Shown: positions 35,174 through 55,663, counted from the first letter of the whole stretch. The stretch: DNA of 63,106 bases, filler included, from Candidatus Eiseniibacteriota bacterium (GCA_043809585.1; 9 parts of 8 records of this genome joined end to end with filler, not necessarily neighbours in it), one strand, 5' to 3'. Numbers and translations: made by a program. Notes: generated by a model from the sequence alone, not told the origin.

Positions 35174-35273
35174 NNNNNNNNNNNNNNNNNNNNNNNNNNN
35201 NNNNNNNNNNNNNNNNNTTAATTAATTAANNNNNNNNNNNNNNNNNNNNNNNNNNNNNNNNNNNNNNNNNNNN
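35174..35273. other. Artificial contig spacer
   Basis: N44-TTAATTAATTAA-N44. Confidence 0.99.
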
Positions 35274-38746: not shown

Positions 38747-38846
38747 NNNNNNNNNNNNNNNNNNNNNNNNNNNNNNNNNNNNNNNNNNNNTTAATTAATT
38801 AANNNNNNNNNNNNNNNNNNNNNNNNNNNNNNNNNNNNNNNNNNNN
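38747..38846. other. Artificial contig spacer
   Basis: N44-TTAATTAATTAA-N44. Confidence 0.99.
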
Positions 38847-38987
38847 ACCAGTTTCGCCGCCCCTCACGGTCCCTGGCTTCGTTGCTCTTCCTCGATGTAC
38901 CTATTGGTACGCCGTCGTCATCGCACCTCGCCAGGAATCGCGATGATCTGCCGAAATCGACAACGAACTTCTAATTCGGAACACTAG
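38847..38987. repeat. Palindromic element, family B (partial), ending in CTAG
   Basis: Long imperfect hairpin centred on GTACC-TATT-GGTAC; terminal CTAG overlaps the HNH stop codon. Confidence 0.65.
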
Positions 38988-39922
38988 TTCCGGAAGACCT
39001 CCTCATAGTGCCACTCGAGGAGACGCGAGTCCGGTTTCAGCTCCGGTTGCGTGGGAACGTGGATGAGGCGGCCCTCGAAGGGGTAGTAGGTTGCACCGTT
39101 CTTCCACTCCTCTCGAAGGCGGTTGCTGACGTGGAATCTTAGATCGGGCGTCACGCTGACATAGCCCTTGTCGAAGAGGCGGTGGATATCGGCGCGGAGG
39201 AGTAGACCGTTCCTGTACTCATGCTTGCCGGACTTCTCGTAGGGTCGAATATGAGCGGCCTCGAGGACGGGAAGCGAATGCTCCGTGGTCACTGCGCACG
39301 ATCTCCCGTACGCATCGAGGATGGCTGCACGGAACGACCCCTGACCCAAGCGTGGGCGGACCGGGACGGGCTTGCCAAACCGGGCTCCCTCGTGGATCTC
39401 CCGGAGCACCGGATCTTCCTTCCACTCTGCTCGGAGGTCCGCGGCGCAGGTGAGGCACTCCTGCCAGACACGGAGGCCCTCGCCCTTGGAAATGTCATAT
39501 CCGGTGCCCTGTACGGCATGGATGGGCCAATCCACGGGTTGTAGAACCCATGCCGTCTTCGGAAAGAATACGACTTGCCCGACCATGAGACAGCCGATCA
39601 CCGGGTCTTCGTGCGGCCCCGGTGCGGTGGTACGATAGCGCAAGATCCTGCTCAGCATCTCCTCGAAGGAGGGTGCGCCGTTCATTTCCCCGAACGTCTC
39701 CCACGCGAGGGACGCCGGCAGGCGGGATGCGTGCGAAAAGAAACCGAACCCACCGATCGCGTTGTGCGGGCTCTTCAGCTTGAAGAGGAAAGGCGCACCG
39801 GGGGGAACCCGGTGGAAGTCCCTCGACCCCGACGGCTGCCAGAAGTTCACCTCGTCCAGGTCCGGTTTCGAGCTCAGGAAGCGATACCAGTCGTAGTCCG
39901 TGTTCGCAATGTATGCGTCCAT
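38984..39922 (-). CDS. HNH endonuclease (putative restriction endonuclease)
   Basis: RLGQGSFR..YGRSCAVT..LEAAHIRPY..NGLLLRADIHRLFDKG; N-terminal domain TDYDWYRFL..EVNFWQPSG..FLFKL; start at MDAYIANTD. Confidence 0.9.
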   Translation of the reverse strand: MDAYIANTDYDWYRFLSSKPDLDEVNFWQPSGSRDFHRVPPGAPFLFKLKSPHNAIGGFGFFSHASRLPASLAWETFGEMNGAPSFEEMLSRILRYRTTAPGPHEDPVIGCLMVGQVVFFPKTAWVLQPVDWPIHAVQGTGYDISKGEGLRVWQECLTCAADLRAEWKEDPVLREIHEGARFGKPVPVRPRLGQGSFRAAILDAYGRSCAVTTEHSLPVLEAAHIRPYEKSGKHEYRNGLLLRADIHRLFDKGYVSVTPDLRFHVSNRLREEWKNGATYYPFEGRLIHVPTQPELKPDSRLLEWHYEEVFRN

Positions 39923-40279
39923 GAGCCATGCCTCTGATTGGAGGTTAGTGGTTAGACTCTTGAGATTGTAGCCGATGCCGGAACTGCCTGTCGACCAAAG
40001 AGAAGGCGGGGCGGAGACAAGGCTTACCGACAAGGTAGCATGGCAACGAAGTTCCCCGAGGGCCCCATGGCCGGTAGGGGGAACCGCCGTCACACCCCTT
40101 TCTCTGAATAAGGCCGACCCCTTTCGTGACGTCAATTCCCAACCAGATACCCTATTTCTCCGCTATCCTAACCAGATACTCCCATTCCCCATCTTCCCCG
40201 GATTCTTGTCGGCGGGGGAGCCCCGCATCCGAAGGGATGAAGTGAGCCGGAGGTGGTCGTGATTCCCGATGGCCGGTCC

Positions 40280-41455
40280 ATGTTCGACTGTGACGTCCTC
40301 GTGATCGGGGGGGGGGCGGCGGGGCTCTTTTGCGCTGCCGTCGCCGGGGGGCGGGGCCGGTCGGTGGTCGTCCTCGAGCGGGCGTCCCGGATCGGGAACA
40401 AGATCCGGATCTCCGGCGGCGGGCGGTGCAACTTCACGAACGTGAACGCCGGGCCGGAGAACTTCGTCTCCGAGAACCCCCACTTTTGCAGGAGCGCCCT
40501 CGCCCGTTTCACCGCCGCCGATTTCGTCGCCCGGATCGAGGGGCGGGGCGTCGCCTGGCACCAGGAGAAGAAAGGGCAGCTCTTCTGCGACGAGGGCTCG
40601 CGGGAGATGATCCGCTTTCTCGAGGAGGAGTGCCGGGATTCCGGAGTCCGGATTCTCGTGAACGTCGAGATCGGGGCGGACGGGATCGAGAAGGGGGACC
40701 GCTTCGACGTGTTCACGAGCCTCGGCGTCTTCCGGGCGCCGTCGGTCGTTATCGCCACGGGGGGCCTGTCGATACCAAAGATGGGGGCCACCCCCTTCGG
40801 CCTCGAGATCGCGGAGCGATTCGGGCACCGGATCGTCCCCTGCCGCCCGGCCCTGGTCCCCCTCCTCTGGAACCGGGAGGACCGGGAGACGTTCGGAGGC
40901 CTCGCCGGGGTCTCCCTGGACGCCCTGGTCCGCCTCGGCGCCCGGGAGTTCCACGATCCGATCCTCTTCACCCACCGGGGCCTCAGCGGGCCCGCCATCC
41001 TCCAGATCTCGACCTACCGGACCGGGGAGGAGCCGATCGAGATCGACCTCCTGCCGGGGAGGGACCTCGGGGAGGAGCTCCTCGCCGCCCGGGGCCGGGG
41101 GGCCGACCTCGGGTCGTTCCTCGCGAAGAGGCTCCCGAAGCGGTTCGCGAAGATCTGGGTCGACGCCGTTCTCGGCCCGAAGCCCCTCGCCCGCCGGTCC
41201 GACGCCGAGCTCGGGGCGATCGCCGCCCGCCTGAAGGGGTGGCGGATCTTCCCGGCGGGGGACGAAGGGTACGCGAAGGCCGAGGTGACCGCCGGAGGCG
41301 TCGATACCCGCGAACTCTCGTCGAAGACCATGGAGAGCGGGAAAGTCCCGGGGCTCTTTTTCATCGGCGAGGTGGTCGACGTGACCGGCTGGCTCGGCGG
41401 CTATAATTTCCAGTGGGCCTGGTCCTCCGGATTCGCTGCCGGGCAGTACGCCTGA
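40280..41455 (+). CDS. HI0933/YhiN/BaiN-family flavoprotein
   Basis: VIGGGAAG, KIRISGGGRCNFTN, ATGGLSIPKMG, LFTHRGLSGP, GWLGGYNFQWAW. Confidence 0.95.
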   Translation: MFDCDVLVIGGGAAGLFCAAVAGGRGRSVVVLERASRIGNKIRISGGGRCNFTNVNAGPENFVSENPHFCRSALARFTAADFVARIEGRGVAWHQEKKGQLFCDEGSREMIRFLEEECRDSGVRILVNVEIGADGIEKGDRFDVFTSLGVFRAPSVVIATGGLSIPKMGATPFGLEIAERFGHRIVPCRPALVPLLWNREDRETFGGLAGVSLDALVRLGAREFHDPILFTHRGLSGPAILQISTYRTGEEPIEIDLLPGRDLGEELLAARGRGADLGSFLAKRLPKRFAKIWVDAVLGPKPLARRSDAELGAIAARLKGWRIFPAGDEGYAKAEVTAGGVDTRELSSKTMESGKVPGLFFIGEVVDVTGWLGGYNFQWAWSSGFAAGQYA

Positions 41456-41720
41456 CCCTCCCGGTGGGGAAGGAGACCCTGCCCTCCCCCGCCCGTTCCC
41501 CGCGGGCCGCTCTCTGATTTCCTGCCCCCCGACAGAAATTTTCGAATTTAACCATTGCCTCTGGTTAACGGACTGAGGTATATTCCCCCTTGAGCCCCGA
41601 GGAAGGGCCGGATCGACGATCCCCCCTCCACAAGTGGGATGGGATGACGCCGGGACCGATCCCGAGGGCGCCCTCTCCTCTCGCACCCGAACCCAAAGGA
41701 TTCGAACGGAGGTCTTGCCA

Positions 41721-42509
41721 GTGAGAAAGTCGCTACTTACGACGATCTGTGTTCTGCTGCTCCTCGCCCCCGCCGGAGGCGCGTTCGCCGAGATGACCAA
41801 CACCGGCGTCGACCGGACCCACGTGTCCGGCGGCAACGTCCTGACCGACCCGCTCCTCCCGGTCGTGGGCCGCATCCTGTACGCCCCCTCCGAGGCGGAT
41901 GATCCGGCCCTTCGTGCCGCCATCTCCGTCGCCGCGGGCGGAGCGGTCGTCGACTACTTCGATGCCACCGCCGGTGTCCCGACCGTCAGTCTCCTGAGTA
42001 CATATGACTGTGTGTACACCTGGGCCAACTTCGGCTACCTCGACAACGTCGCGTTCGGCGACAACCTGGCCGCCTACGTGGACGGCGGCGGTTCGGTCGT
42101 TCTGGGCGCCTTCTGCACCTTCACGCTCGGCAACTTTCTCTCCGGGGCGATCATGGGCGCGGGCTACTCTCCCGTCTACTCCCCGTCGGGATCGAACTGG
42201 TTCTCCAGCGCCGCCTACAGCGGCGACGGGACCACCTGCATCCACAACGACGTCGGCACCTACGAGTGCTTTTACCGTGACGATCTCGCCCTCCAGGGCA
42301 CCGGCGCGGTGGACGGCACCTACACGGACGGCGTGATCGCCCATGCGTACCGCTCCGACTACAAGGTGATCTACAGCAACGGCTCGGGCGCGGTCCAGCT
42401 CGGCTGCTCCGGCGATTGGGCTCTGCTCGTCGCGAACGCCTGCGCGTGCGAGGGCGCGACCTCGACCAGTTCTTCGAGCTGGGGCACCGTGAAGACCATG
42501 TTCCGGTAG
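41721..42509 (+). CDS. Secreted hypothetical protein ending SWGTVKTMFR
   Basis: GTG start after GGAGG; signal peptide; LAAYVDGGGSVV (class I GATase-like fold hint); Ser/Thr linker before the terminal motif. Confidence 0.8.
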   Translation: MRKSLLTTICVLLLLAPAGGAFAEMTNTGVDRTHVSGGNVLTDPLLPVVGRILYAPSEADDPALRAAISVAAGGAVVDYFDATAGVPTVSLLSTYDCVYTWANFGYLDNVAFGDNLAAYVDGGGSVVLGAFCTFTLGNFLSGAIMGAGYSPVYSPSGSNWFSSAAYSGDGTTCIHNDVGTYECFYRDDLALQGTGAVDGTYTDGVIAHAYRSDYKVIYSNGSGAVQLGCSGDWALLVANACACEGATSTSSSSWGTVKTMFR

Positions 42510-42549
42510 ATTCGAAGGATCGGATCGAGAATCGAGTCCGACGATTCGA

Positions 42550-42583
42550 GGGCGGCTTCCCGACCGGGAGGCCGCCCCTTTCT
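42550..42583 (+). terminator. Intrinsic terminator
   Basis: GGGCGGCTTCCC-gacc-GGGAGGCCGCCC followed by CTTTCT. Confidence 0.65.
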
Positions 42584-42697
42584 CGTTCCCGGCCCGGGCC
42601 ACGACGCGTCCCTCCCGGGAGACCGGGAATCCCCCGATCCCCTTTCCTCCATGACAGGCGCCTCGCCCCTCCGCTATGATCCGGCCGGGAGGGGTCC

Positions 42698-43927
42698 ATG
42701 CTGAATAAGATCTGGGCCGGGTTCTTCCTCGTCGGCTTCGTGGCGGCCTGCGTGCAGGCGCTCTTCCTCGGAAGCCCGGGGATCTTCGGCGACGTCGTGG
42801 GCGCCACGTTCGACATGGCGAAGACCGGTTTCGAGATCGCCCTCGGCCTCACGGGGATCATGTGCCTCTGGCTCGGCATCCTCCGCCTCGGCGAGGCGGG
42901 GGGAGCGGTCGCGTGGATCGGCCGCCTCTTCCGTCCCCTTTTTCGCCGCCTCTTCCCCTCCATCCCCGCGGGCCATCCGGCGGAGGGATCGATCGTGATG
43001 AACATGGCGGCGAACGTGCTCGGCCTCGACAACGCGGCCACCCCGATCGGCCTGAAGGCGATGGCGGAGATGCACGGGCTGAATCCGGACAAAGAATCGG
43101 CGAGCGATGATCAGATCCTCTTCCTCGTGATCAACACGTCGTCGGTTACGCTCCTTCCGGTCACGATCTTCACCTACCGGGCACAGATGGGGGCCGCGGA
43201 CCCGACGGATGTCTTTCTCCCGATCCTGATCGCGACCTACTGCAGCACCCTGGTGGGGCTTCTGGTGACCTCCTTGGTGCAGCGCCGCAGCCTCCGGGAC
43301 CCGGTGATCCTCGCCTATCTCGGCGGGATGACCCTCTTCGTGGCCGCCCTGGTCGGCTACTTCGCCCGTCTCGACCAGGCGACCATGGAATCCCGCTCCT
43401 CCCTCATCGCCAATTTCGTGATCCTCTCGGTGGTCGTGGCCTTCTTGGGGGCCGCCCTCCGGCGCCGGGCCCCGGTCTACGAGGTCTTCGTCGACGGCGC
43501 CAAGGAAGGTTTCCGGGTCGCCGTCGGGATCATCCCGTACCTCGTGGCCATGCTCGTCGCCATCGGCGTCTTCCGGGCGAGCGGCGCCCTGGACCTGCTT
43601 CTGGGCGGGGTTCGCGCCGGGGCGGACGGCCTCGGTCTCGACACCCGCTTCGTCGACGGCCTCCCGACGGCGTTCATGAAGCCCCTCTCGGGAAGCGGCG
43701 CCCGGGGGATGCTGATCGAGACCATGAAGATCCACGGCGCCGACTCCTTCGCGGGGCGCCTCGCGAGCGTCGTCCAGGGGAGCACGGAGACCACCTTCTA
43801 CGTGCTCGCCGTCTACTTCGGCTCCGTCGGGATCAAGCGGACCCGGCACGCCGTCGGGTGCGGGCTCGCCGCCGATCTCGCCGGCGTCGTGGCCGCCATC
43901 CTGGCGAGCTACTTCTTCTTCGGATAG
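42698..43927 (+). CDS. SpmA/SpmB fusion, nucleoside-recognition (Gate) membrane protein
   Basis: MNMAANVLGLDNAATPIGLKAM, FLVINTSS, KPLSGSGARG, QGSTETTFYVLAVYFG. Confidence 0.92.
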   Translation: MLNKIWAGFFLVGFVAACVQALFLGSPGIFGDVVGATFDMAKTGFEIALGLTGIMCLWLGILRLGEAGGAVAWIGRLFRPLFRRLFPSIPAGHPAEGSIVMNMAANVLGLDNAATPIGLKAMAEMHGLNPDKESASDDQILFLVINTSSVTLLPVTIFTYRAQMGAADPTDVFLPILIATYCSTLVGLLVTSLVQRRSLRDPVILAYLGGMTLFVAALVGYFARLDQATMESRSSLIANFVILSVVVAFLGAALRRRAPVYEVFVDGAKEGFRVAVGIIPYLVAMLVAIGVFRASGALDLLLGGVRAGADGLGLDTRFVDGLPTAFMKPLSGSGARGMLIETMKIHGADSFAGRLASVVQGSTETTFYVLAVYFGSVGIKRTRHAVGCGLAADLAGVVAAILASYFFFG

Positions 43928-43935
43928 GAGAGGGA

Positions 43936-45129
43936 ATGGGGGCGCGCCGTCTTCTCGAGAACCTCCTCTTCTTCTTCCTTCTGATGTTCTTTCTCGCCGC
44001 GCCGGCGTCGGTGGCCTACTCGGAGATCGCCCTCGGGGTCGCGGCCCTCCTCTTCGCCGCCCGGCGTCTCGTCCGGCGCCCGGAGCCGCTCTTTCCGAGA
44101 CCGGTCCCGTCGTGGAGGACCCTCGCCCTCCCCGCCGCCGGCTGGGTCGTCGCCTACGGGATCGCCGCCCTCTTCGCCCGGGAGAAAGGGGCAAGCGCGG
44201 CCAAGCTTCTGAAGCTGACCCCCATGATCCTCCTCTTCCTCCTCCCGGCCCTTCTCTGGAACGAGAAGCGGCTCCGCCACGCCGCCGCGGCCCTCCTCCT
44301 CGGCGGCGCGATCACGTCCGCCTACGGCATCGCGTATTGGCTGGACGACCCGTCGACCCGTCTGGGCGGATTCATCGGCTTCTACATGAGCACGGCCGGG
44401 ATTCTCATGATGATCTCCCTCGTCGGCTTCGCCCTTCTCTTCACGAGAGGATTGGGAGGCGCGCTCCGGTGGATCGCCGTCGCCGTCCTTCCGGTCATCC
44501 TCTTCGCCCTCTACCTCACCGACACCCGGGGGGCGTGGCTCGGGCTGGTCGCGGGCCTCGTCGTCCTCGTGGTCTCCGTCGACCGGAGGCTCGTCGCCGT
44601 ACCGGCGCTGCTCATAGGGCTCCTCCTTCTCGCGCCGGGGGACGCGCGCCGGACCGCCCTCTCCGCGTTCGATCCGGGCCATCCGAGAAACCGGGAGCGG
44701 ACGTTCATGTGGAAGGCGGGGTGGCGCATCTTTCTCGATCACAAGTGGACGGGGGTCGGTCCGGCGGGGATGGGCGAGGTTTATCTCGAGTACATGGACC
44801 GTGACGCGAAGGAGAAGGCGAAGCACCTCCACAGCGTGCCGGTTCACGTCCTCGCGAGCCTCGGCCTCTTCGGCTTCGCCGCGTGGGCGTGGCTCTTCGC
44901 CGCCCTTCCGGTCTGGATCGTCCGGCGGACCGGGCCGGTCCGCCGCCGGGGCTCTCCCGCGTCCCGGGGGCTCCTCGCGGCCGGTCTTGCCGTGTGGGCG
45001 GGGTTCGTCGTGAACGGTCTCGGAGAGTGGAACCTGGGCGACGTGGAGGTGATCACCCTCTTCTGGTCGGTCCTCGGCCTCGCGGCGGCCTCCGCCGCGG
45101 CGTCAAACGAAAGGGGACGGGCCGACTGA
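43936..45129 (+). CDS. O-antigen ligase (WaaL/Wzy_C) family membrane protein
   Basis: Multiple TM helices; LTDTRGAWLG, ERTFMWKAGW..TGVG, HLHS motif. Confidence 0.85.
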   Translation: MGARRLLENLLFFFLLMFFLAAPASVAYSEIALGVAALLFAARRLVRRPEPLFPRPVPSWRTLALPAAGWVVAYGIAALFAREKGASAAKLLKLTPMILLFLLPALLWNEKRLRHAAAALLLGGAITSAYGIAYWLDDPSTRLGGFIGFYMSTAGILMMISLVGFALLFTRGLGGALRWIAVAVLPVILFALYLTDTRGAWLGLVAGLVVLVVSVDRRLVAVPALLIGLLLLAPGDARRTALSAFDPGHPRNRERTFMWKAGWRIFLDHKWTGVGPAGMGEVYLEYMDRDAKEKAKHLHSVPVHVLASLGLFGFAAWAWLFAALPVWIVRRTGPVRRRGSPASRGLLAAGLAVWAGFVVNGLGEWNLGDVEVITLFWSVLGLAAASAAASNERGRAD

Positions 45130-45138
45130 CCCGTCCCC
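45110..45138 (-). terminator. Terminator between convergent genes
   Basis: GGGGACGGG/CCCGTCCCC stem with TTTC on the minus strand. Confidence 0.55.
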
Positions 45139-45162
45139 CGGACGATTCGTCCGATTCGAGAC

Positions 45163-45897
45163 CTACCGGAAGTTGCTCTTGATGGTTCCCCACGTGGTCG
45201 GCCGGGTCGACGTGGGCGGAACCCGATACTCGATCTCGCCGATCGCGCCGCTCATGTAGAGGTCGACTTCCATGCGCGTGATCGCTTCGTACTGGGAGAG
45301 GTCGATGGTCTGGGCCGAGTTGTCGCCGTAGGTCGCGGCGTAGACCGTGGCCACCAGGCTCTTGGCTGCGTCGTAGAGGCGGATTGCCGCCCCCTCGCCG
45401 TCGTCCATGTCGACGATCTTGATCCAGAAGATCGTGGTCGGCTCGATGAAGTCGAAGCCGATCACGCCGCCGCCCGCCTCGTCGTCCGGGTCGTCGACCA
45501 GGCCGTCTCCGCCGACGTCGATGATGTCCTCGGCGACGATCAGCAGGTTGCCGAGGGCTACGTCGTTCTGGCCGGGCATGCCCAATCCGCCGCCCGGTCC
45601 GACGCCCGGTCCGCCGAAGTCCTGGTTCGGCGTGCCGAGATCGTCATCCCCCCCCGTCGGGGCGGAGGAGTTGAACAAGATCGCCGACGATGGTCCGCCC
45701 CCGTTGTTCACCACGTCGAGGGTGAAGTCGGGAAAGAGGTTCCCGGGGGAAGTGCCGCCGCCGGGGAGAAGGCCGGCCACGACCGTACCCGCGGGAAGGC
45801 TGTTGAAGTCCTGGGTGACCGCCGGCGCAACCGTCGCCGCCGCCAGGATCGCGAGGGCCCCGGCCCACGGGCCGAGGGAGAGTCCGTGAATCTTCAT
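45163..45897 (-). CDS. Secreted hypothetical protein ending TWGTIKSNFR
   Basis: Start MKIHG after GAGGAG; signal peptide; Asp/Gly-rich beta domain; Pro/Thr linker before the terminal motif. Confidence 0.8.
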   Translation of the reverse strand: MKIHGLSLGPWAGALAILAAATVAPAVTQDFNSLPAGTVVAGLLPGGGTSPGNLFPDFTLDVVNNGGGPSSAILFNSSAPTGGDDDLGTPNQDFGGPGVGPGGGLGMPGQNDVALGNLLIVAEDIIDVGGDGLVDDPDDEAGGGVIGFDFIEPTTIFWIKIVDMDDGEGAAIRLYDAAKSLVATVYAATYGDNSAQTIDLSQYEAITRMEVDLYMSGAIGEIEYRVPPTSTRPTTWGTIKSNFR

Positions 45898-46202
45898 CTT
45901 CGATCTCCTCTGGGTTGTGTGAGTCAACGTTCTTTGACACAATGAGTTATGGTGTTTCTCTTTTTGAGGACGAGCCGCCCGCGGCCACGAACGGATCTTC
46001 CCCTTGTCCCGTCGATCCTCTTATCGGCAGTCGAGTTTCGGGGCTTCAGCGGAAAAAAAGGGGGGGGCTTCGCTTCTTGATTCCGGATCGTGCTGGTGGT
46101 CTCGCGCCGGCGGGGATAGATTGAGAGGGACCATCGGAGGATCTACGTAATCGGGGGCCGTCCTTGCAGCCGGCCGAAACTCACGGGCGAGGAGAGGACG
46201 AC

Positions 46203-46541
46203 ATGAAAATCAAGGAGCGAAAAAACGGCGACGTGGTGGTGCTCGAGATCTCGGGAAGGATCGAAGGGGGGCCGGACGCGGAGATCTTCCGGGGAAAGAT
46301 CGGGGACCTGATCGTACGGGAGGCGAAGAAGGTGATCTTCGAGCTTTCCGAGGTCCCTTGGATGAACTCGACGGGCGTCGGGATCATCATCTCCGGTTTC
46401 ACGTCGATCCGGAAGTCGGGGGGGGAGGTGAAGCTCCTGAACGTGAAGGAGCGGGTGAAGAGCATCTTCATGATCACCCGTCTCCTCACGGTGCTCGAGA
46501 GTTATTACGAGGAAGAGGAGGCCGTGAAGAGCTTCAAGTAG
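46203..46541 (+). CDS. STAS-domain anti-sigma factor antagonist
   Basis: DVVVLEISGRI..VPWMNSTGVG..GGEVKL. Confidence 0.9.
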   Translation: MKIKERKNGDVVVLEISGRIEGGPDAEIFRGKIGDLIVREAKKVIFELSEVPWMNSTGVGIIISGFTSIRKSGGEVKLLNVKERVKSIFMITRLLTVLESYYEEEEAVKSFK

Positions 46542-46644
46542 GGCGGGCTATTCCGGGTACGAATCGATCACGGTCCGGGTGATCCTGCCGTTCTCGACCT
46601 TCCATTTGCAGGATGGCCGCCCCCTCGCGATCCGCCCTCCCGTC

Positions 46645-47976
46645 CTACCCGTGGTCCTCGGCGAACCGGGCGAGCCTCTCCTCGAGCATGGGGATCATGT
46701 CGGGGGTGGTGAGGGAGGTGCACGCCCGGAGACCCTCGGTCCGGACGCTCCCGGCGGAGGCGAGGGTGATGGCGCTCACCCCGTAATGGAGAAGTTCCCT
46801 GATCAGTTCCCACCCTTCGGCGAACTTCGGGTGGCGGATCGTGAAGTAGAATCCGTCCGCGAGGGGCTCGCCGAGATCGTTGTCGTAGACGAGCTCGAAC
46901 CCGTGATCGAGGAAGGCCTTCTTCATGGCCGCCGCCCTCCGGCCGTACTCCCGGACGTCCTGGAGGAAAGGGACCTCGCCGTCGTTCACCGCCTTCAAGA
47001 GCGCCGCGAGACCGTGCTGGGGCCCCTCCGGAGTGCACGCCGTGTTCAGATAGATGCCCCCGTGAATGAACGCGTAGCCGACCCTGCGGGTGCCGTGATG
47101 GGCCAGGAGGTGCGGCGATTCCTCGCTTAGAAGGGCCGGCGAGACGTAGGTGATCGCCACCCTCTGTCCCGCGTAGCTGAACAGCTTCGAACTCGACATG
47201 ATGACGAACCACCGCTTGGCGTAGCGGGCCACCGTCGGCTGGTAGGGGGGCTCGCCGGGTTTGGAGTAGTCCTTCCGGAAGTCCATTCCGAAGTAGGCGA
47301 GGTCTTCGATGGCGATGACGCCGTGCCTGTCGAGCACTTCGCCGATGCCCGCGAGTTCCTCTTCGGAGAGGATGATCCAGGCCGGATTGTTCGGGGAGGA
47401 CCAGAGGACCGCGGCCACGTCCCCCTTCGCGAGACGCTCGTCCAGGGCCCGCACCAGCGTCTCCCCCCGGCAGTCGTACACGTCGATGCGGTCGTACGAG
47501 AGCCCGAGGAAACGGCACTGCTGCTTGTTCACGGGGAAGCCGGGCTCGAGGAAAAGCACGGTCCGGCGGGCGGGATCGACGTGGCCCGCCACGGCGAGGC
47601 TCATGAAGCACCCCTGCATGGCCCCCACGGTGGGGACTGAGCAGGCGGGAGTGAGATCGATGTTCATGAAGAGCTTCGCGAACCGGGCCGCCTCCGCCTT
47701 CAGCTCCGGAATGCCGTCGAAGGGGGCGTACCTGTTGGCGAGGCCTTTGTCCCTCAGGGCCTCGATCTCGGCGTTCACGGCGACCGGATTCGCCGGAAGG
47801 CCGGGTATGCCGAACTCCATCCGGATGAACCGGACGTCCAGTGCCTCTTCGATCTCGTTCACGATCCTGTTCATCTCCCGGATCGACGCCGTACTGAGAT
47901 CGATCCGCCCGTCCCGGACGATCCGGCCCACGACCTCTCGATCGAAGGGCACCATCACGCTCGTCGTGCCGCTCAT
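46645..47976 (-). CDS. PLP-dependent aminotransferase class I/II
   Basis: SPNNPAW, EDLAY, SSSKLFSYAGQR (PLP lysine). Confidence 0.9.
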   Translation of the reverse strand: MSGTTSVMVPFDREVVGRIVRDGRIDLSTASIREMNRIVNEIEEALDVRFIRMEFGIPGLPANPVAVNAEIEALRDKGLANRYAPFDGIPELKAEAARFAKLFMNIDLTPACSVPTVGAMQGCFMSLAVAGHVDPARRTVLFLEPGFPVNKQQCRFLGLSYDRIDVYDCRGETLVRALDERLAKGDVAAVLWSSPNNPAWIILSEEELAGIGEVLDRHGVIAIEDLAYFGMDFRKDYSKPGEPPYQPTVARYAKRWFVIMSSSKLFSYAGQRVAITYVSPALLSEESPHLLAHHGTRRVGYAFIHGGIYLNTACTPEGPQHGLAALLKAVNDGEVPFLQDVREYGRRAAAMKKAFLDHGFELVYDNDLGEPLADGFYFTIRHPKFAEGWELIRELLHYGVSAITLASAGSVRTEGLRACTSLTTPDMIPMLEERLARFAEDHG

Positions 47977-48031
47977 CTCGTCACCTCCCGAATGTCGTCC
48001 GGGGCTGAAGACCGATGGGAACCGCCGGGGG

Positions 48032-49834
48032 TCAGGTTAGTTCCAGTTCGAAGATCGCGACCGGGGCGTTGATCCCGAAATTCTCGAGCACCTCGGGGTG
48101 GACCTCGCCGGCGGCGCCGATCTCCCGCCCGCCGACCGAAAGAACGGCCCCCCGTCCCTCGAGAAAGAGCGCATCCGTCGACGGGCGGAACTCGAGGGAC
48201 CAACCGATCTCCCGGGCGAGGGCGACCACCACCGACTTGATGTCCGCGAACCCGGCCGCCTTGTCCTGAATCACCGCGGCGACCCGGAGCTTCTCCTCCG
48301 GCTCCTCGCGGTCTTCCACGATCCGGAGCACGTCGTCCGCCTCGAAGAGACGGTGGGCGAGGCCGGCCCCCCGGTTCCTCCCGAGCAGGCGGAGCAGGCC
48401 GGGCCCGAGGGCGGTGCGGAGGACGGTCTGGTCCGACGACGCCGGATTCTCGGCGCGCACCGCGTCTCCCGGATCGACGGCGCGCACGTTTTCGTAAAGG
48501 TCCTTCTCGCCGGTCAGCATGAGGCTCATGGCCTCCCGGAACCCGAGGCCGATCATGGCCGCCCGGGCCAGGGCCTGAAGCACGCGCTCCGGACGCTCCT
48601 TCCCAAGGGTGAAGCTCGGAATGAGGACCCGCGGGATCTCGTCGTACCCGATCGCCATCGCCACGTCCTCGATCAGGTCCACCTCGTGGAGGATGTCGTT
48701 CCGGAAGGCGGGGACCCTCACCCTCACCCGGTCGCCCTCCACGGCGCCCCCGTGGCGCATCGCCTCGAGACGCATCACCGCCTCGGCGGCGTTCACCGGC
48801 ACGCCGACGATCCGGGTCGCCTCGGCGGGGGAGAGGAGGAACTCGGCGGGCGTGAGATCGGGCGTCTCCGTACGGCCCTCGTCCCCCCGCGCGATCGCCA
48901 CCTTCTCGATCGCGGCGCCGGAGAAGAGTTCGGCGAAGGAGGTGACGAGCACGTTCAGCGCCTTCCGGACCGGCCGCTCCTCGATGCCGGTCACGTCGAT
49001 GAAGAGGTCCGTCGACTCGGGCCGGAGCGCCGTCTCCTGGCTGTTGATGATGGGAGGCATGGAGAGGACCCGACCCTTCCCGTCGTGGAGGAGCGGGTAC
49101 CTCGCCATACCGTCCAAGAGGTGCCTGTACCCCATCCCTTTCGGGTGCGTCTCCAGGATCGCCCGGGGGGTTCGGGCCTTTCCGTCGATCGACGCGAGGG
49201 GGACGAACTCGATCTCCTCCGGTCCCACAGGACGGTAGCGGAAGGGGCCTTCGAGGGTGCCCAGATCGTAGACACCGATGGAGGCGAATTTCCGGTCCCG
49301 GCCGAGGGCCCAGTGGAGGTCTTCCTGGAGTTTCATCACCGCCCGGATCGCGAAGTCGTCGAGCGCGACGCCCCGCACCACGGCGCATTCGATGTAGGGC
49401 CGGTACGAATCCGGGTTCCCCATCGCGGGGTCCACGCGCACTTCGTAAACCGCCTCTCGAAGCTCGTACCGGGGGAGGCCGGTCTCGATGCCGAGCAATC
49501 CCCGGAGCGCCCGGGCGAGGCCCCCCGCGTCGAAGAGGTCGGGCCGCACCGGAAGGAGGTCCATGCGGATCGCGTTTTCCGTGCCGAGATCCTCCCAAAA
49601 CCGGTCGATGTCTTCCCCCGCGCCCGTGAGGCACTCGGGACAGGCGCCGGGGAGTTCCCCCTTCTCGGTCCTTTCCACGATGGACCGGCAGGCGGAGCAA
49701 CGGATGCGGCGGACCGGGGCGAACCCCTCCACGTCGCACCCGAGACCTTCGAGAAGGTCCGAGAGCCTCTGGTCGTCCACGTCGAGACCGACGATTCGGC
49801 GGAGCGGCTCGGTGGGGATGGCGATCACAGGCAC
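48032..49834 (-). CDS. pheT: Phenylalanine-tRNA ligase beta subunit, archaeal/eukaryotic type (600 aa)
   Basis: GTG start MPVIAI overlapping the pheS stop; RPDL, LQEDLH..GRDRKFASIGVYDL, VLSMPPIINS, RNDILHEVDLIEDVAMAIGY, GEVHPEVL; no bacterial OB (B2) or anticodon (B8) domain. Confidence 0.93.
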   Translation of the reverse strand: MPVIAIPTEPLRRIVGLDVDDQRLSDLLEGLGCDVEGFAPVRRIRCSACRSIVERTEKGELPGACPECLTGAGEDIDRFWEDLGTENAIRMDLLPVRPDLFDAGGLARALRGLLGIETGLPRYELREAVYEVRVDPAMGNPDSYRPYIECAVVRGVALDDFAIRAVMKLQEDLHWALGRDRKFASIGVYDLGTLEGPFRYRPVGPEEIEFVPLASIDGKARTPRAILETHPKGMGYRHLLDGMARYPLLHDGKGRVLSMPPIINSQETALRPESTDLFIDVTGIEERPVRKALNVLVTSFAELFSGAAIEKVAIARGDEGRTETPDLTPAEFLLSPAEATRIVGVPVNAAEAVMRLEAMRHGGAVEGDRVRVRVPAFRNDILHEVDLIEDVAMAIGYDEIPRVLIPSFTLGKERPERVLQALARAAMIGLGFREAMSLMLTGEKDLYENVRAVDPGDAVRAENPASSDQTVLRTALGPGLLRLLGRNRGAGLAHRLFEADDVLRIVEDREEPEEKLRVAAVIQDKAAGFADIKSVVVALAREIGWSLEFRPSTDALFLEGRGAVLSVGGREIGAAGEVHPEVLENFGINAPVAIFELELT

Positions 49835-51345
49835 AGGGGGGTCTCCTCCAGCCAGCGGATGTCGCTCCAGTAGAGCTTGCGGATGTCGCTGATGCCGAAC
49901 CGTTTCATGGCGAGCCGCTCGAGGCCGAGTCCCCAGGCGAGGACGGGGACGTCGACGCCGAAGGGACGGGTCACCTCGGGGCGGAAGACTCCGGCGCCGC
50001 CGAGCTCGAACCAGCCCCCCTTCCCCTCCATGTGCGCGAAAACGCCGACGCTCGGTTCGGTGTAGGGGAAGAAGTCGGGGCGGAATTTGATCTGCTCGAA
50101 TCCCATCTGCCGGTAGAACTCGGCGAGCGTGCCGAGCAGAGTCGAGAGGCTCGCCTTCTCGTCCACGATGATGCCGTCCACCTGGTGGAACTCGGGGAGA
50201 TGCTTGTAGTCGATCTTCTCCCTCCGGAAGACGCGGCCCACGAGGAAGACCTTGCGCGGCGGCTTCGGGTTCTCCTTTAGGGCGTAGACCGTCGCCGCCG
50301 TCGTGTGGGTGCGGAGGACGACCCGTCTCGCCTCCTCTTCGCTCCACCGGTAGCGCCAGCCGATCGAGCCGGTGTCTCCCCCGTTCTCATGGGTCGCCTT
50401 CACCCGCTCCACCAGCTCCTTCTCGGGGAGCTCGAAGCGGCCGGGACGGTCGACGTAGAACGTGTCCTGCATCTCCCGGGCCGGATGGTCCTGGGGTTGG
50501 AAGAGGGCGTCAAAGTCCCAGAAGGCGCTTTCCACGTAGGGCCCGCGGATCTCTTCGAATCCCATGTTCAAAAAGGCGCGGCGTGTCTCCTCCAGTATGC
50601 GGCGGAGGGGGTGGGGTTTGGTGGGGTGCGCCTCCGCCGCGTCCAACGTGACGTCGTAGGGGCGGAAGACGACCTCCCGCCAGGCGCCGTCGACGAGAAG
50701 ATCGGGATCGAGCCGGTTCCGCTCCCGCTTCTCCTCGACGCCGGCCTCGACGGCCGCCCGCCCCTCGCCGGTGAGCGCGGCGCTCCGCCGTGTGCGGGGC
50801 CGGTTCTTCGCGTAGCCCCGGGCACGGAGCTCGCCGAGGGCGGCGGCGAACTTCTTCGACTCATCGCCGGAGAGTTCGATGGGGACGCCGCCCGATTCCC
50901 GGAACCGCTCGAGGAGGGCCAGATCGTCCCCTCCGGACGGTTTCGTTCCTGTCGGTTCGAGAACGCCTCCCGATTTCTTGGCGAGGTTTTTCGAAAAGAG
51001 GAAGCGGAGCAGCTTGCCCGCCTCCTTTGGGTCGAGGCCGGCGCGGGCCGCCAGATCGGGGAGGGGGAGGGGACCTTCCGCGGCGAGTATCTCGCCCATC
51101 CGGACCTCGGGGAGCTCCTCCCCTGAACCGAGGAACGCCCGGCCCTCGTCCAGGAGCTCGACCTCCTCGAAGGGCTCCTCCTCCACCCGCACCCAGCCCC
51201 GCTCCTGGAGTTCCAGGGCCCCGGCGGCGACGAGGGACTGGCCGACGCCGGTCGACGAGGCGATCTCGTCCAGCAGCAGGGCGCCCTCCGCCTTCGCCAG
51301 ATGGGTCAGGAGAGCGTACTGGTGTGTTGGTAGGGACGTGGTCAC
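49825..51345 (-). CDS. pheS: Phenylalanine-tRNA ligase alpha subunit, archaeal/eukaryotic type (506 aa)
   Basis: Long wHTH-like N-terminus; FWDFDALFQPQDHPAREMQDTFY, HENGGDTGSIGW, VLRTHTT, FFPYTEPS, AWGLGLERLAM. Confidence 0.95.
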   Translation of the reverse strand: MTTSLPTHQYALLTHLAKAEGALLLDEIASSTGVGQSLVAAGALELQERGWVRVEEEPFEEVELLDEGRAFLGSGEELPEVRMGEILAAEGPLPLPDLAARAGLDPKEAGKLLRFLFSKNLAKKSGGVLEPTGTKPSGGDDLALLERFRESGGVPIELSGDESKKFAAALGELRARGYAKNRPRTRRSAALTGEGRAAVEAGVEEKRERNRLDPDLLVDGAWREVVFRPYDVTLDAAEAHPTKPHPLRRILEETRRAFLNMGFEEIRGPYVESAFWDFDALFQPQDHPAREMQDTFYVDRPGRFELPEKELVERVKATHENGGDTGSIGWRYRWSEEEARRVVLRTHTTAATVYALKENPKPPRKVFLVGRVFRREKIDYKHLPEFHQVDGIIVDEKASLSTLLGTLAEFYRQMGFEQIKFRPDFFPYTEPSVGVFAHMEGKGGWFELGGAGVFRPEVTRPFGVDVPVLAWGLGLERLAMKRFGISDIRKLYWSDIRWLEETPLCL

Positions 51346-51427
51346 TCGGGTGCGCTCCTGCTCAGAAGGGTCCGGGTCCGAACCGCCATCGTAGCACAGG
51401 TTGGAGCCCCGAGCATAGTACAGCGCC

Positions 51428-51772
51428 CTACTTCATGAAGTAGAGAAACCGTCCGCAATGGGGGCAGGTGAGGATCTCCTGGTTCTTGTCCACCTGGGCG
51501 AGCTGGGTGGGGAGGCGCTGGAAGCATCCGTAGCAAACGCCGTCGAAGACGGGGGCAATCACCTTGCCGTATTTCTCGCGGATCCGATCGTAGCGCCGGA
51601 GGAACGTGGGGTTGCATTTCTCGCGGGTCCGATTCCGGGCGTCCTCGAGCTGCCCTTTCCGGCTGACGTCGAACCCGAGTTCTTTCTCGATCGCGTCGTT
51701 TCCCTTGCCGAGGTCGTCGAGCATCAGGTCGATGTCGTTCAGAATGACCAGGAACTCCAGATCTTCCTTCAA
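51428..51772 (-). CDS. C4-type zinc-ribbon protein (DUF164-like, short)
   Basis: YDRIR..GVCYGCFQRLP..ILTCPHCGRFLY. Confidence 0.85.
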   Translation of the reverse strand: MKEDLEFLVILNDIDLMLDDLGKGNDAIEKELGFDVSRKGQLEDARNRTREKCNPTFLRRYDRIREKYGKVIAPVFDGVCYGCFQRLPTQLAQVDKNQEILTCPHCGRFLYFMK

Positions 51773-51784
51773 CGGTTCTCTCCT

Positions 51785-52246
51785 CTACGCCGTCAGGTCG
51801 TCGATCAGGTTCAGAACCTCCGCCTTCGAATCGATCTCGGCGAGCTTCTTCCTGTTCTTCGCAAGCCGAACGAGCTGGACGATCTTCGCCAGGATCGGGT
51901 GGTACAGGTTCGAGGGATCGATGGGAGGGGAGGCGACCAGAAAGAAATGGTTCACCTTGCCTCCATCGACGGCGTCGAAGTTGATTCCCTTCTCGGAACG
52001 GCCGTAGGCGAGAGTGATGTTCGAAAAGATCGTGGAGCGGACGTGGGGGATGGCGATCCCCTTTCCGATGCCGGTGGAACCGAGCTTCTCCCGGGAGACG
52101 ACGAGCTCGAGGGCGATGCCCCGGGAGCCCGGGTCGATGGGGAGGAGCCCCACGAGCTCTTCGAGCACCTCGCTCTTGTTCTTGGCCTTCAGGATCAGTT
52201 CGATGGAGGATGGATCGAGATAATCGGACAGGTGGATCGGTACCAT
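51785..52246 (-). CDS. PTS IIA domain protein (PtsN/EIIA-Ntr-like)
   Basis: REKLGSTGIGKGIAIPH, GINFDAVDG. Confidence 0.9.
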   Translation of the reverse strand: MVPIHLSDYLDPSSIELILKAKNKSEVLEELVGLLPIDPGSRGIALELVVSREKLGSTGIGKGIAIPHVRSTIFSNITLAYGRSEKGINFDAVDGGKVNHFFLVASPPIDPSNLYHPILAKIVQLVRLAKNRKKLAEIDSKAEVLNLIDDLTA

Positions 52247-52408
52247 GCACGACCTCACTCGGGTCAAAAAGCCTCGCACACCAATCGTACCCCTGAGGGT
52301 AGCTTCTCCGGAACCGCGGGGCAACCGGAAAATGCCCCCCCTCTTGACCGGAACCGGACGGGTTCGATACATTACCCCGCGGGAGGGAACAGGTTGGAAA
52401 AGGCGAAG

Positions 52409-53281
52409 ATGATGACCAAAGGAGAGCGGTCCGCCCTCAGGGCCGGAGCCGCCGAAGCGGTGGCCGGCCTTTCGGCGGAGCAGGGGGACGAGGCCGCGCG
52501 CCGTCTCCTGCCCCTGATCCTGCCCGACCCGAAAGCCCCCGTCAGCCGGGGGGGGCTCCGGGTGAGCCGGGATGTGATCCTCGAAGTGGTCGACACCCTG
52601 GGCAAGAAGATACGGAGCAAGGAGAAGCTCCGGGCGGTCACCGACGGGCTTTGGGGTCTCGAAGCCGACGAGGCCCGGACCGCCGCCGCCCTCGCCCTGG
52701 GCCCCCTCCTCCCCACGGGGGACGACGAATCGGAGGCCCGATCCGTGCAGTGGGTGAAGGAGCTCGCCGCCTCCACCTCGTCGCCGGTGGTGCTCGACGC
52801 CCTCGCCGACACGCTCTCGAGGGAGATGGAGAGGGGCGCCACCGACTCGTGGGCCCGGGCTTTCAAGGTGTGGCGGAAGGACCCGGACCGGCGTTTCCGG
52901 ATCCTCGGTCTCGGCTCGTTCACCCATCTCCTCTCCCGGGGGCGGACCCCGGAGAAGCTCTTCGACGCTTTCATGCTGGGCCGCCGGCTCGCCGGGGACG
53001 GTGACGATGAGGTTCGGCACGCCGTGGTCGGCCTTTTCGTCACCGGGGGACGAAAGCAGCCCCGGGCGGCCCGCCGCTTTCTCGATCGGATGGAAGAGGA
53101 CGGGCGGGAGGAAGTGAAGGGCGTCGTCGAGGAGGCGCGGGCCAAGATCCCCGAACCGGAAGAGGAAGGGGCCGCCATCGCCGGCGGGGAGACGGATACG
53201 GACGCGGATACCGACGCCGGGACCGATTCGGACACGGATAGGGAGCGGCCGGCGGCCGCGGAGTTCGGCGACTTGCCGTGA
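52409..53281 (+). CDS. HEAT-repeat-like helical protein (AlkD/DNA alkylation repair-like), acidic tail
   Basis: All-helical pattern with WRKDPDRRFR and LAGDGDDEVRHAV repeats; start uncertain. Confidence 0.55.
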   Translation: MMTKGERSALRAGAAEAVAGLSAEQGDEAARRLLPLILPDPKAPVSRGGLRVSRDVILEVVDTLGKKIRSKEKLRAVTDGLWGLEADEARTAAALALGPLLPTGDDESEARSVQWVKELAASTSSPVVLDALADTLSREMERGATDSWARAFKVWRKDPDRRFRILGLGSFTHLLSRGRTPEKLFDAFMLGRRLAGDGDDEVRHAVVGLFVTGGRKQPRAARRFLDRMEEDGREEVKGVVEEARAKIPEPEEEGAAIAGGETDTDADTDAGTDSDTDRERPAAAEFGDLP

Positions 53282-53439
53282 CGCCGGGAAGGCGCCGGAA
53301 GGCACTTTTTCCCCCCCTCCTCCTTCTCGCGCCCTGCCGGTCCCGGACGCCCCTCCGCCGGCGGACCCGGGGGACGGCCTTGATCCCCCCCCGTCCGACT
53401 CCCTCTCCGGGACCGGAACGCCTCCGTGAGCGCCCTTTC

Positions 53440-53469
53440 TTGACACCCGATCGGACCCCGTGATACGAT
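53440..53469 (+). promoter_or_regulatory. Sigma70 promoter for the EF-G paralog
   Basis: TTGACA-18 bp-TACGAT with extended TG. Confidence 0.65.
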
Positions 53470-53511
53470 TCCTTTTCTATAGTAACCGGCATCGGCAGAA
53501 GGAGATGCGCC

Positions 53512-55584
53512 GTGAAAACCTATGAAACCGAAGCGCTCCGCAATCTGGCCCTCATCGGCCACGGGGACTCCGGCAAAACATCCCTGGCGGAGGCCTTTCT
53601 CTTTCTCGGGAAGGTAACCAACCGGCTGGGAAAGGTCGATGAGGGGACCTCGCACTTCGATTACGACGAGGAGGAGAAGAGGAGGGGGGTCACGATCCGG
53701 GCGAGTCTCGGATTCGTGGAGTGGAAGAAGCGGAAGATCAACTTCATCGACACGCCGGGGTACGACGATTTCGTCGGTGAAGTGGTCGCCGGTGTCCACG
53801 TGTCGGACGCCGTGGTGGTGATGATCGATTCCCAGTCGGGCGTCGAGGTCGGCACCCAGCGGGTCTGGACCCACGCGAGAAGCCGGAGCCTTCCCGCGTT
53901 CTTCTGCGTGAACAAGATCGACCGGGAGCACTCCGACTACTTCAAGGCTCGCGATGCGGTCCACGACCGGCTCGCGCCGGGGGCCGTGTCCGTGACGATC
54001 CCTCTGAACGAAGGGGAAGGCTTCGACGGCGTGATCGACGTTCTCCACATGAAGGCCGTGAAGTATCCGGCCGACGGCTCGGGGGCCGGTGTCGCGGGGG
54101 AGATCCCGGCGGACCGGATGGACGCCGCGAAAGCGGCCCGGGAGCGCCTCGTCGAGCAGGTCGCCGAGACGGACGACTCCTTGGTGGAGAAGTACCTCGA
54201 TCGGGGTGAGCTGTCGGACCAGGAGATTCTCCTCGGACTGAGGAAGGGGATCGCCGCGGGGACGGTTCAACCCGTGTTCGCCGTCGCCACGGGGAAGAAC
54301 ATCGGTATCGACATTCTCCTCGACACGATCGCCGAGTCGGGTCCGTCCCCTCTCGACGCGCCGGAGGTGGAGAGCAAGGATGGGGGCGAGAAGCGCGGAC
54401 CGAAGACGGGAAAGACGGCGGCGCTCGCCTTCAAGACCACGTCGGAAGCCCACATGGGCGACATGACGATCTTCCGCGTTTACAGCGGCTCCCTCGACTC
54501 GGGAACCGATTTCCAGAATCCGCGAAAGGGCAAGACCGAGCGGGTCGGCCAGCTCTACTTCCTGCAGGGGAAGGACCGGGTCGACACGTCCACGCTCCCC
54601 GCCGGCGACCTCGGCGCGGCGGTCAAGCTGAAGGAGATCAAGACCGGCGACACCCTCTGCGAGTCGGGTGGATCCTTCATACTCGGCGAGATCCCCTTCC
54701 CGGCGCCGGTCATCCGCGCCGCGGTGGTGGCCAAGAAGGAGGGGGAGGAAGACAAGATCGGCAACGGCCTCGCGAGGCTCCAGGAAGAGGACCCGACGCT
54801 CAAGGTCCTCCACGACGGAGACGTTCATCAGACCATCATCAACGGCATGGGCGAGCTTCACCTCGACATCGTGGTGAAACGGCTGAAGGAGCGGTTCAAC
54901 GTCGAGGTGGAGCTGATCAAGCCGCGCATCGCCTACCGGGAAACGATCCGCGGGAAGGCGGAGGTCAACGGCCGGTACAAGAAGCAGACCGGGGGCCGGG
55001 GGCAGTTCGGGGACGTCTGGCTCCGCCTGGAGGCGGTGGAGCGGGGGACCGGCTTCGAGTTCGTCAACGGCATCGTCGGCGGCGTCGTGCCGGGCAAGTT
55101 CATCCCCGCCGTCGAGAAGGGCGTCATCGCGACCATGGAAGACGGCGTGCTCGCCGGCTACAAAGTGGTGGACGTGAAGGTCACTCTCTACGACGGCTCC
55201 CATCACGCGGTGGACTCCTCGGAAAACAGCTTCAAGGTGGCCGGCTCCATGGCGTTCAAGAAGGCGTTCCTCGAGGCGAATCCGGTTCTCCTCGAGCCGA
55301 TCTACGTGGTGAAGGTGACGGTGCCGGAGGAGTTCATGGGCGACGTGATGGGCGACCTCTCCTCACGCCGGGGCAAGATCCTCGGCATGGAATCGGAGGG
55401 ACCCTTCCAGATCGTGCGCGCCCTGGTGCCTTTGGCCGAATTGTACAAGTACTCGACGAACCTCCGCTCTCTTACCCAGGGGCGGGGCATCCACGAGCGG
55501 GAATTCGACCACTACGAGGAAATGCCCCGGGACCAGGCCGAGAAGGTGGTCGCCGAGGCGCAGGCGGAGAAGGCGGAAGCGTAG
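53512..55584 (+). CDS. fusA: Elongation factor G paralog (EF-G2 type, outside the str operon)
   Basis: [50 protein letters not shown]. Confidence 0.93.
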
Positions 55585-55663
55585 GCTGCCCCCGCTCTCG
55601 GGGGGTGTGTTAGACTCAGGCCGTCGCAGGGGGCCCAGACGCCCCGTGCGGACGAGGTGGGCC

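Follow-up and report, generated by a model that had tools for sequence, protein, structure and literature searches.

A short C-terminal tag on unrelated secreted proteins of Candidatus Eiseniibacteriota, probably a sorting or anchoring signal, and its possible tie to type IX secretion

Two genes in a stretch of DNA from Candidatus Eiseniibacteriota (63,106 nucleotides with filler, called here the window) encode secreted proteins that end in the same way, and the question raised by this locus is whether their common C-terminal motif is a sorting signal and, if so, what reads it. Protein 1 (41721..42509, plus strand) ends in ATSTSSSSWGTVKTMFR and protein 2 (45163..45897, minus strand) in PTSTRPTTWGTIKSNFR, in both cases directly before the stop codon, and the common ending can be written ..T-S-T-x-x-x-(S/T)-W-G-T-(V/I)-K-x-x-F-R-stop. 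It had originally been predicted that both products share the motif (S/T)WGT(V/I)KxxFR, that both have signal peptides and that their bodies are dissimilar. The motif was confirmed in these two genes, and signal peptides were found in both proteins (MRKSLLTTICVLLLLAPAGGAFA, with cleavage before E, and MKIHGLSLGPWAGALAILAAATVAPAV..). The bodies show no BLAST link at 1e-5 and their AlphaFold2 (AF2) models differ in fold; the proteins are not full-length homologues and their bodies are unrelated.

How bacteria build their surfaces is determined by C-terminal sorting signals, and every such signal described so far has led to a dedicated machinery. The ending studied here is very probably a real, lineage-wide C-terminal sorting or anchoring tag. 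It can be proposed as a modular element, (P)-T-(S/G/A)-T-E-x-x-(S/T)-W-G-x-(V/I)-K-x-(L/M)-(F/Y)-R-COOH, which a flexible linker would join to small Sec-exported proteins of surface type (adhesin-like beta-helices, carbohydrate-binding module (CBM)-like, VWA, lamin-tail (LTD) and choice-of-anchor domains). The tag is unusually short, with neither a membrane helix nor a fold, and it is carried by about 2% of the genes.

A recurrent ending on secreted proteins

The 4.24 Mb genome to which the window belongs was scanned in six frames, and the strict motif WG.[IVLM]K..[FYW][RK]? was found as the C-terminal end of 47 of the 34,792 open reading frames (ORFs) of at least 60 amino acids, so the motif is not rare in the proteome. 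The core motif WG.[IVLM]K..[FYW] lies no more than 5 residues from the stop in 56 of its 59 occurrences among these ORFs. From proteome composition, 0.86 occurrences of the core would be expected anywhere and 0.0002 at the C-terminus; twenty shuffles of the last 60 residues of each gene gave 0.00 C-terminal matches per proteome, against the 47 observed. The shared ending is not due to chance. Six further genes have variant endings such as SW(T/S)x(V/I)KxLFR, and the tag genes, variants included, are about 62 among 3,057 crude gene calls (roughly 2%). A hidden Markov model made from the tails gives 59 matches in the genome.

The alignment of 56 tails, which were selected by the motif, has the consensus TSTExxSWGxVKxLFR, where W, G and K are invariant (for G, this holds for those 56) and F is present in at least 90%. 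In five variant tails found later the G position is occupied by T or S, whereas W and K are again invariant. The final residue is R in all 47 genes ending in -FR or -YR, none in this genome ends in K, and the conserved Lys is at position -5.

As an artefact, an ending of this kind could also come from genes duplicated recently, from repetition of a DNA element or from readthrough of the stop codon into a hidden domain, and some tag genes are in fact tandem paralogues (e.g. on contigs C6, C66, C69 and C97). However, 24 of the bodies are singletons, the ending is conserved in two phyla, the third codon positions of the tag vary, and the DNA 3' of the stop, often a terminator hairpin, is unrelated between genes. 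The usage of the stop and of the Arg codon (CGG) in tag genes is close to the genome background, TAG being the stop in 60% vs 42% (p 0.008). An artefact is hardly credible, and a DNA repeat, readthrough or a codon oddity were rejected as its sources. Because third positions vary and nothing is kept past the stop, the constraint acts on the peptide and not on the DNA. As a side observation, the stops of the whole genome (crude calls, 66% G+C) are TAG in 42% and TGA in 47%, and such a TAG share may be high for this G+C content.

The tag genes are strongly enriched in exported proteins, as had been expected from the two window genes. A strict signal-peptide rule was positive for 42 of 55 tag genes vs 352 of 2838 (12%) other genes (Fisher p 1.6e-26), and for 85 of 164 genes with a type IX secretion system (T9SS) C-terminal domain (CTD), which served as positive control. 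A looser rule was dropped since it accepted 53 of 56 tags but also 52% of background ORFs.

The cargo is diverse. After removal of the last 25 residues, the bodies of 56 tag proteins were grouped by BLAST into 30 clusters, the largest with 12 and 8 members; the predicted reuse of the motif on unrelated secreted proteins is thereby extended to about 62 proteins and 30 body clusters. Pfam families were found on 22 of the 56 bodies (right-handed beta-helix/PMP repeats, VWA, PPC, LTD, fn3, PD40, an ice-binding-like adhesive domain, Lcl_C and InhA-MAM), the other 34 having none. Three of the 56 proteins belong to the NCBIfam families choice_anch_A (104.3, cut-off 29), choice_anch_W (165.9, cut-off 45) and choice_anch_X (34.7, cut-off 25). 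These choice-of-anchor families are named for their pairing with different sorting signals, and both window bodies behave in this way as well. The median length is 258 amino acids for tag proteins and 751 for CTD proteins.

Neither window protein has a Pfam or NCBIfam family at E<=10. With family alignments, AF2 predicts for the body of protein 1 an alpha/beta fold of the class-I glutamine-amidotransferase/ThuA-like type (predicted local distance difference test, pLDDT, 88.9), for which the best Foldseek results were a template-modelling (TM) score of 0.57/0.60 to 2gk3 and an E value of 5.7e-6 to GatD. The body of protein 2 is predicted to be a CBM-like jelly-roll beta-sandwich (pLDDT 92.3), similar in Foldseek to CBM4, CBM32 and gingipain cleaved-adhesin domains (E 3e-5 to 1e-3, TM 0.3-0.6). 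The searches found 226 homologues of protein 1 and 309 of protein 2.

Related to the cargo, the 12-member cluster consists of secreted proteins of about 182 amino acids that begin with ..ELDLDG..GNGPD.. after the signal peptide and have no Pfam or NCBIfam family. Their genes are on contigs C4, C41, C66, C69, C97, C109 and others, at loci L003, L019, L030, L033, L034, L047, L048 and L053.

Distribution and exchange with known signals

All ten species genomes of the window's phylum match the tail profile (15-57 matches each, E<=1e-4), and Candidatus Eisenbacteria is the label of the closest named proteins. The other family of this phylum has the linker (P)NA(T/V)E in place of TSTE, with the same core. 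The tag was also found in two Krumholzibacteriota-labelled metagenome-assembled genomes (MAGs), with 14 and 12 matches, in a Fibrobacteraceae-labelled MAG (12 matches) and in an Eiseniibacteriota-labelled MAG (4). From a second phylum, with a Krumholzibacteriota-labelled reference MAG, 41 genomes were sampled, of which 40 match (1-27 each), and one complete genome has (V/I)STExx(S/T)WGx(V/I)KALY(R/K) on signal-peptide proteins. The tag is kept across two candidate phyla, and the original prediction that such termini recur in candidate phyla of the Fibrobacteres-Chlorobi-Bacteroidetes (FCB) group holds for both. At E<=0.001 the profile has no match in 31 unrelated bacterial genomes, two of which gave single weak matches (E 1.4e-3 and 3.3e-3), and none in 3 Bacteroidota-labelled MAGs and 2 Planctomycetota genomes. 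Among 1.84 billion protein cluster representatives, 216 pass E<=0.001, and in 140 of the best 150 of these the motif is no more than 2 residues from the end.

Some metagenome proteins, including P0002, P0005, P0064 and P0128, have two or three tags in tandem at the C-terminus. Besides, an internal copy lies between two repeated domains in lipoprotein-like proteins of about 400 amino acids, and internal copies often do not have the final R. Duplicated or internal tags are present in P0001, P0010, P0017, P0023 and P0070 as well as in the four proteins just named, and in this genome at C88:27728-29374 and C115:42815-43441.

The same bodies are found with other sorting signals. In the same genome, 20 of the 62 tag bodies are matched by a paralogue (BLAST 1e-8) that has a T9SS type A CTD and not the tag, and the alignments reach a common junction, ..P-(S/T)-x-x-E-x-x-(S/T)-W-G.. 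on the tag side and ..PTGVAE..PNPFNP.. on the CTD side. Among the best 120 of the 226 protein 1 homologues, 40 have the tag, and the others have an IPTL-CTERM-like end (one above the TIGR04174 cut-off, 25.1 bits vs 20.5), further domains, or a short ending GVPVELQS(I/F)x(V/I)E. The protein 2 body is joined to the tag in MAGs labelled Eisenbacteria, Krumholzibacteriota and otherwise, to PEP-CTERM in a Fimbriimonadaceae-labelled MAG (TIGR02595, 26.1 bits, cut-off 16), to a T9SS CTD in a Bacteroidota-labelled MAG (TIGR04183, 42.2 bits, cut-off 23), and to tails with a transmembrane segment plus basic residues in archaeal MAGs. Since the endings swap at one junction, the tag behaves as expected of an interchangeable sorting or anchoring module.

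Of the best 120 protein 1 homologues 80 have no tag, and many of these close with ..GVPVELQS(I/F)x(V/I)E-stop (P0173, P0181, P0185, P0189, P0195 and others, one of them labelled Holophagae). This ending gave no NCBIfam match in three tested proteins and was not found in this genome. A different lineage may here have a short C-terminal tag of its own, likewise undescribed.

With respect to known signals, PEP-CTERM/exosortase, IPTL-CTERM, LPXTG/sortase and GlyGly-CTERM/rhombosortase resemble the tag in that a short signature is placed on many unrelated secreted proteins of a lineage. However, in PEP-CTERM, IPTL-CTERM, LPXTG and GlyGly-CTERM the motif is followed by a transmembrane helix and a basic cluster, whereas the tag ends 9 residues past W without any hydrophobic segment. 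A comparison of the 56 tails with 18,950 NCBIfam models gave no match at E<=10, in agreement with the original view that the motif has no transmembrane segment and differs from PEP-CTERM, LPXTG, GlyGly-CTERM and the T9SS CTD. No Pfam or NCBIfam match of the full tag proteins covers the tail, and searches of full-text literature (motif spellings, and lineages with secretion terms; subscription journals lay outside the coverage) returned no description of it. We take it that the tag is undescribed within the libraries and literature searched; it would belong to the known kind of C-terminal protein-sorting signals and is a member of no family tested. The tag profile improves the annotation of the secretome in Eisenbacteria- and Krumholzibacteriota-labelled MAGs, considering that 34 of the 56 cargo proteins are without Pfam match.

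Candidate readers of the tag

The presence of T9SS was judged from CTD, PorU and PorV/PorQ-family matches, and the genome contains 141 CTD matches, with PorU in 2 full-length genes and the PorV/PorQ family in 9, all of these genes above the cut-off. Both PorU paralogues are on one contig (C39:1357-4836 and C39:109688-113119), and PorV/PorQ-family barrels are 9-11 per genome throughout the window's phylum and 5 in a Bacteroidota-labelled MAG.

The most likely reading of the tag is one linked to T9SS, because an (L/M)-hydrophobic-R terminus, nearly exclusive to tag and CTD, and a conserved Lys are common to both; that the tag is a minimal linear signal tied to this pathway has a probability slightly short of even. 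The CTDs of this genome end in T-(R/K)-(K/R)-h-(V/T)-L-h-R, where h is hydrophobic. The terminus [LM][FYLIVM]R-COOH is found in 40 of 55 tag genes, 96 of 164 CTD genes and only 10 of 2838 others, 6 of these 10 being variant tags; from these counts, the last three residues are common almost exclusively to the tag and CTD classes. A basic residue is located 5-6 positions from the end in both, and in the tag it is the invariant Lys. Similarly, part of the published work on the translocon describes an almost invariant, functionally important Lys near the C-terminus of type A CTDs (PMC10994853). The type A CTD (TIGR04183 / PF18962) thus resembles the tag in its conserved Lys a few residues from the end and in its hydrophobic-hydrophobic-basic terminus, and also in being C-terminal on Sec-exported cargo of surface type, with the same body families in the same genome.

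According to this reading, after Sec export the free C-terminus would be read by the type IX secretion pathway, or by a component shared with it, through K at -5, (L/M) at -3, F/Y at -2 and R-COOH at -1, and the tag would correspond, in linear and minimal form, to the last strand (motif E) in the type A CTD. The small cargo would be carried across the outer membrane or onto its outer face, and the conserved T-E of the linker might be a cleavage or attachment site. According to one source, a CTD needs its last 13 residues for secretion, the final 22 residues of the HBP35 CTD are enough for green fluorescent protein to be secreted, and PorU is said to cleave between T, E, D or N and G, A or S (PMC10202324). 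The minimal CTD signal described there is this 22-residue end of HBP35, with an essential extreme C-terminus (PMC10202324). Different CTD types are served by specialised shuttle proteins, as stated in a section of another source (PMC12618676).

A locus kept in five genomes, from both families of the phylum, also concerns this reading. It resembles a polysaccharide utilisation locus (L220, C50:39500-49200, with equivalents L221-L224) and has the gene order TonB-dependent receptor (CarboxypepD_reg, Plug and barrel), 1101-aa protein with a CTD-like end, PorV-like barrel (PorV/FadL-like), PF10091 glycoamylase with a CTD, and tag protein (262 aa). The tag protein that closes it belongs to the family of locus L024 in this genome. 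Such an arrangement fits a surface location of the tag protein beside T9SS cargo.

Several observations weigh against a link with T9SS. The co-occurrence of tag and T9SS does not discriminate, because every genome of both phyla has the system (CTDs are present in 47 of the 47 genomes searched, 46 of them tag-bearing). Part of the structural work indicates that the translocon binds a folded beta-sandwich CTD by its shape, mainly through hydrophobic contacts (PMC10994853), and a 16-residue peptide cannot fill a pocket that reads a folded shape. The CTD is a beta-sandwich of about 80 residues (the model covers about 70-100), whereas the tag has no fold and conserves a W-G that is not a CTD feature. 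Sec signal peptide, conserved Lys and T9SS genes are found with the tag as with CTD proteins, but a match to the domain model is not: CTD models do not detect the tag, and none of the 164 CTD genes overlaps a tag gene. AF2 gives the tag a short helix, at low to moderate confidence, and not a strand.

Genomic context and covariation point in the same direction. Tag genes are not enriched around PorV or PorU (5 of 62 within 10 kb, vs 6.5% of other genes), and PorV-family copies do not follow the tag, as tag genomes have 5-11 of them and a Bacteroidota-labelled MAG free of the tag has 5. The linkers do not covary, the tag linker changing from TSTE to NATE between families while the TG[VI] of CTD linkers is unchanged. 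One family has four lipoprotein-like tag proteins, and lipoproteins are unusual as T9SS cargo; the genome has four secretins, so other outer-membrane routes exist. None of three T9SS-bearing Bacteroidota-labelled MAGs has the tag, and a lineage-specific reader would still be needed. Besides, a binding module would account for the tandem tags and the predicted helix no less well than a transport signal.

Some of these observations could also be explained by a dedicated machinery outside T9SS (e.g. a receptor for the C-terminus, an outer-membrane acceptor, or a peptidase or transpeptidase) that would read the tag and send a class of small proteins elsewhere than CTD cargo. A specific protein reader would fit the W-G-x-(V/I)-K core, which is kept in two phyla and absent from CTDs; tag and CTD are mutually exclusive, the much smaller tag proteins suggest a separate class, and the missing linkage to PorV or PorU and the tag-free Bacteroidota-labelled MAGs agree with it. 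On the other hand, no candidate gene emerged for such a machinery, and the (L/M)-hydrophobic-R terminus common to tag and CTD would have to be a coincidence or reflect a shared downstream factor; a dedicated machinery is judged rather unlikely. As regards the neighbours of tag genes, the members of the largest cluster (22) have T9SS CTDs in common, and CTD genes occupy 6 of the 110 positions flanking tag genes, vs a genome frequency of 5.4%. Recurrent neighbours were considered as machinery and rejected: PMT_2/TPR, spermine-synthase/TPR and two-component systems, with three instances each, are generic. The original statement that no machinery is assigned to the motif stands, as the recurrent neighbour genes contain no reader candidate.

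The predicted structure of the tag bears on another explanation, in which an amphipathic C-terminal peptide would stick passively and non-covalently to the membrane surface, lipopolysaccharide, peptidoglycan or a scaffold protein, without any transport signal. In both AF2 models a low-confidence linker is followed by a short helix across W-G-x-(V/I)-K (protein 1: linker residues 247-252 with pLDDT <50 and helix 254-260 with pLDDT 51-55; protein 2: helix 236-241, pLDDT 74-79). The spacing W, +4, +7, +8 would fit one helical face (W, V/I, L/M and F, plus K and R), two or three tags in tandem are typical of binding modules and not of cleaved signals, and the family of four lipoprotein-like tag proteins is also consistent with anchoring. 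MinD has a C-terminal amphipathic membrane-targeting helix, and the tag is similar to it in having about 10 residues at the extreme C-terminus with an aromatic/aliphatic face plus basic residues. However, the helical hydrophobic moment is not decisive (0.53 vs 0.37 +/- 0.17 in shuffles) and is no better than the strand moment (0.50); the AF2 helix has a pLDDT of 51-79. With the linker Glu and the carboxylate included, the net charge is about zero. Conservation is usually loose in membrane-binding helices, such as that of MinD, which is moreover cytoplasmic, whereas tag proteins are exported and W and K are invariant and G nearly so. The passage of adhesin-type cargo through the outer membrane would also be left unexplained, and passive anchoring is for these reasons doubtful.

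The invariant Lys, the aromatic-Arg terminus and the lipoprotein-like tag family could also suggest covalent attachment to peptidoglycan in the manner of Braun's lipoprotein. Lpp ends in ..Y-R-K and is linked through its terminal Lys. In the tag, however, the Lys is at -5 and not terminal, no tag in this genome ends in Lys, the cargo has surface-type and choice-of-anchor domains, and the homologues carry outer-surface anchors; such a linkage is very improbable.

Returning to the reading linked to T9SS, its consequences can be stated together with those of the alternative. We tentatively propose, at less than even probability, that a linear 16-residue peptide replaces the folded 80-residue CTD as a signal for outer-membrane export or attachment in at least two FCB candidate phyla, or else marks an unknown surface pathway for about 60 small proteins per genome. 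If T9SS reads the tag, a linear peptide can take the place of a folded CTD, which bears on what this system actually reads and puts a compact export tag on offer; if it does not, a sorting system is still to be discovered. Either way, this would be a new portable and very short secretion or anchoring tag for diderm bacteria, with its reader to be found.

Two minor observations concern the CTDs of these genomes. In 32 CTD proteins a motif T-G-(V/I)-(A/E/G/D) precedes the projected CTD start by 15-19 residues, and TG[VI] is present within 35 residues of that start in 40 of 163 CTD genes vs 3.5% of control windows (examples at C84:33008-34450 and C34:386-1936; it is also found in the other family of the phylum). 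From its position, TG[VI] is a candidate PorU cleavage or attachment site, and it only loosely resembles the T-(S/G/A)-T-E of the tag. Regarding the last residue, the CTDs of the window's genome end in R in 132 and in K in 16 of 164 cases, compared with K in 16 and R in 11 of 28 in a second-phylum genome, where some tags also end in K. This shift is weak and may only reflect base composition.

The window locus and its neighbouring genes

The window consists of nine pieces joined by paired 44-N runs, and gene neighbourhood can be read within a piece only. The spacers are at 3762-3861, 17277-17376, 27690-27789, 31147-31246, 35174-35273, 38747-38846, 55995-56094 and 60368-60467. Both tag genes are in the piece 38847-55994, which corresponds to contig C14 of the 123-contig genome.

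The gene of protein 1 begins with GTG at 41721 and encodes 262 amino acids plus the stop. Its signal peptide corresponds to 41721..41789 (plus strand; AF2 helix at residues 2-19), with a cleavage site that was placed from the AxA pattern and is therefore putative. The C-terminal tag TSTSSSSWGTVKTMFR, linker plus core, is encoded by 42459..42506 and followed by the TAG stop at 42507-42509. The gene of protein 2 begins with ATG at 45897 and encodes 244 amino acids plus the stop. Its signal-peptide region, at 45808..45897 on the minus strand, has an AF2 helix at residues 9-19 and an uncertain cleavage site, and its tag TSTRPTTWGTIKSNFR is encoded by 45166..45213 (minus strand), before the TAG stop at 45163-45165.

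Between these two convergent genes there are two membrane-protein genes on the plus strand, mentioned here as context: one with two Gate (nucleoside recognition) domains at 42698..43927 (PF07670, E 2e-20) and one of the Wzy_C / O-antigen-ligase-like type at 43858..45129 (PF04932, E 1.3e-21), an adjacency known from one locus. Wzy_C enzymes include O-oligosaccharyltransferases, and the linker of the tag is rich in Ser and Thr, with the Wzy_C gene close by in the window.

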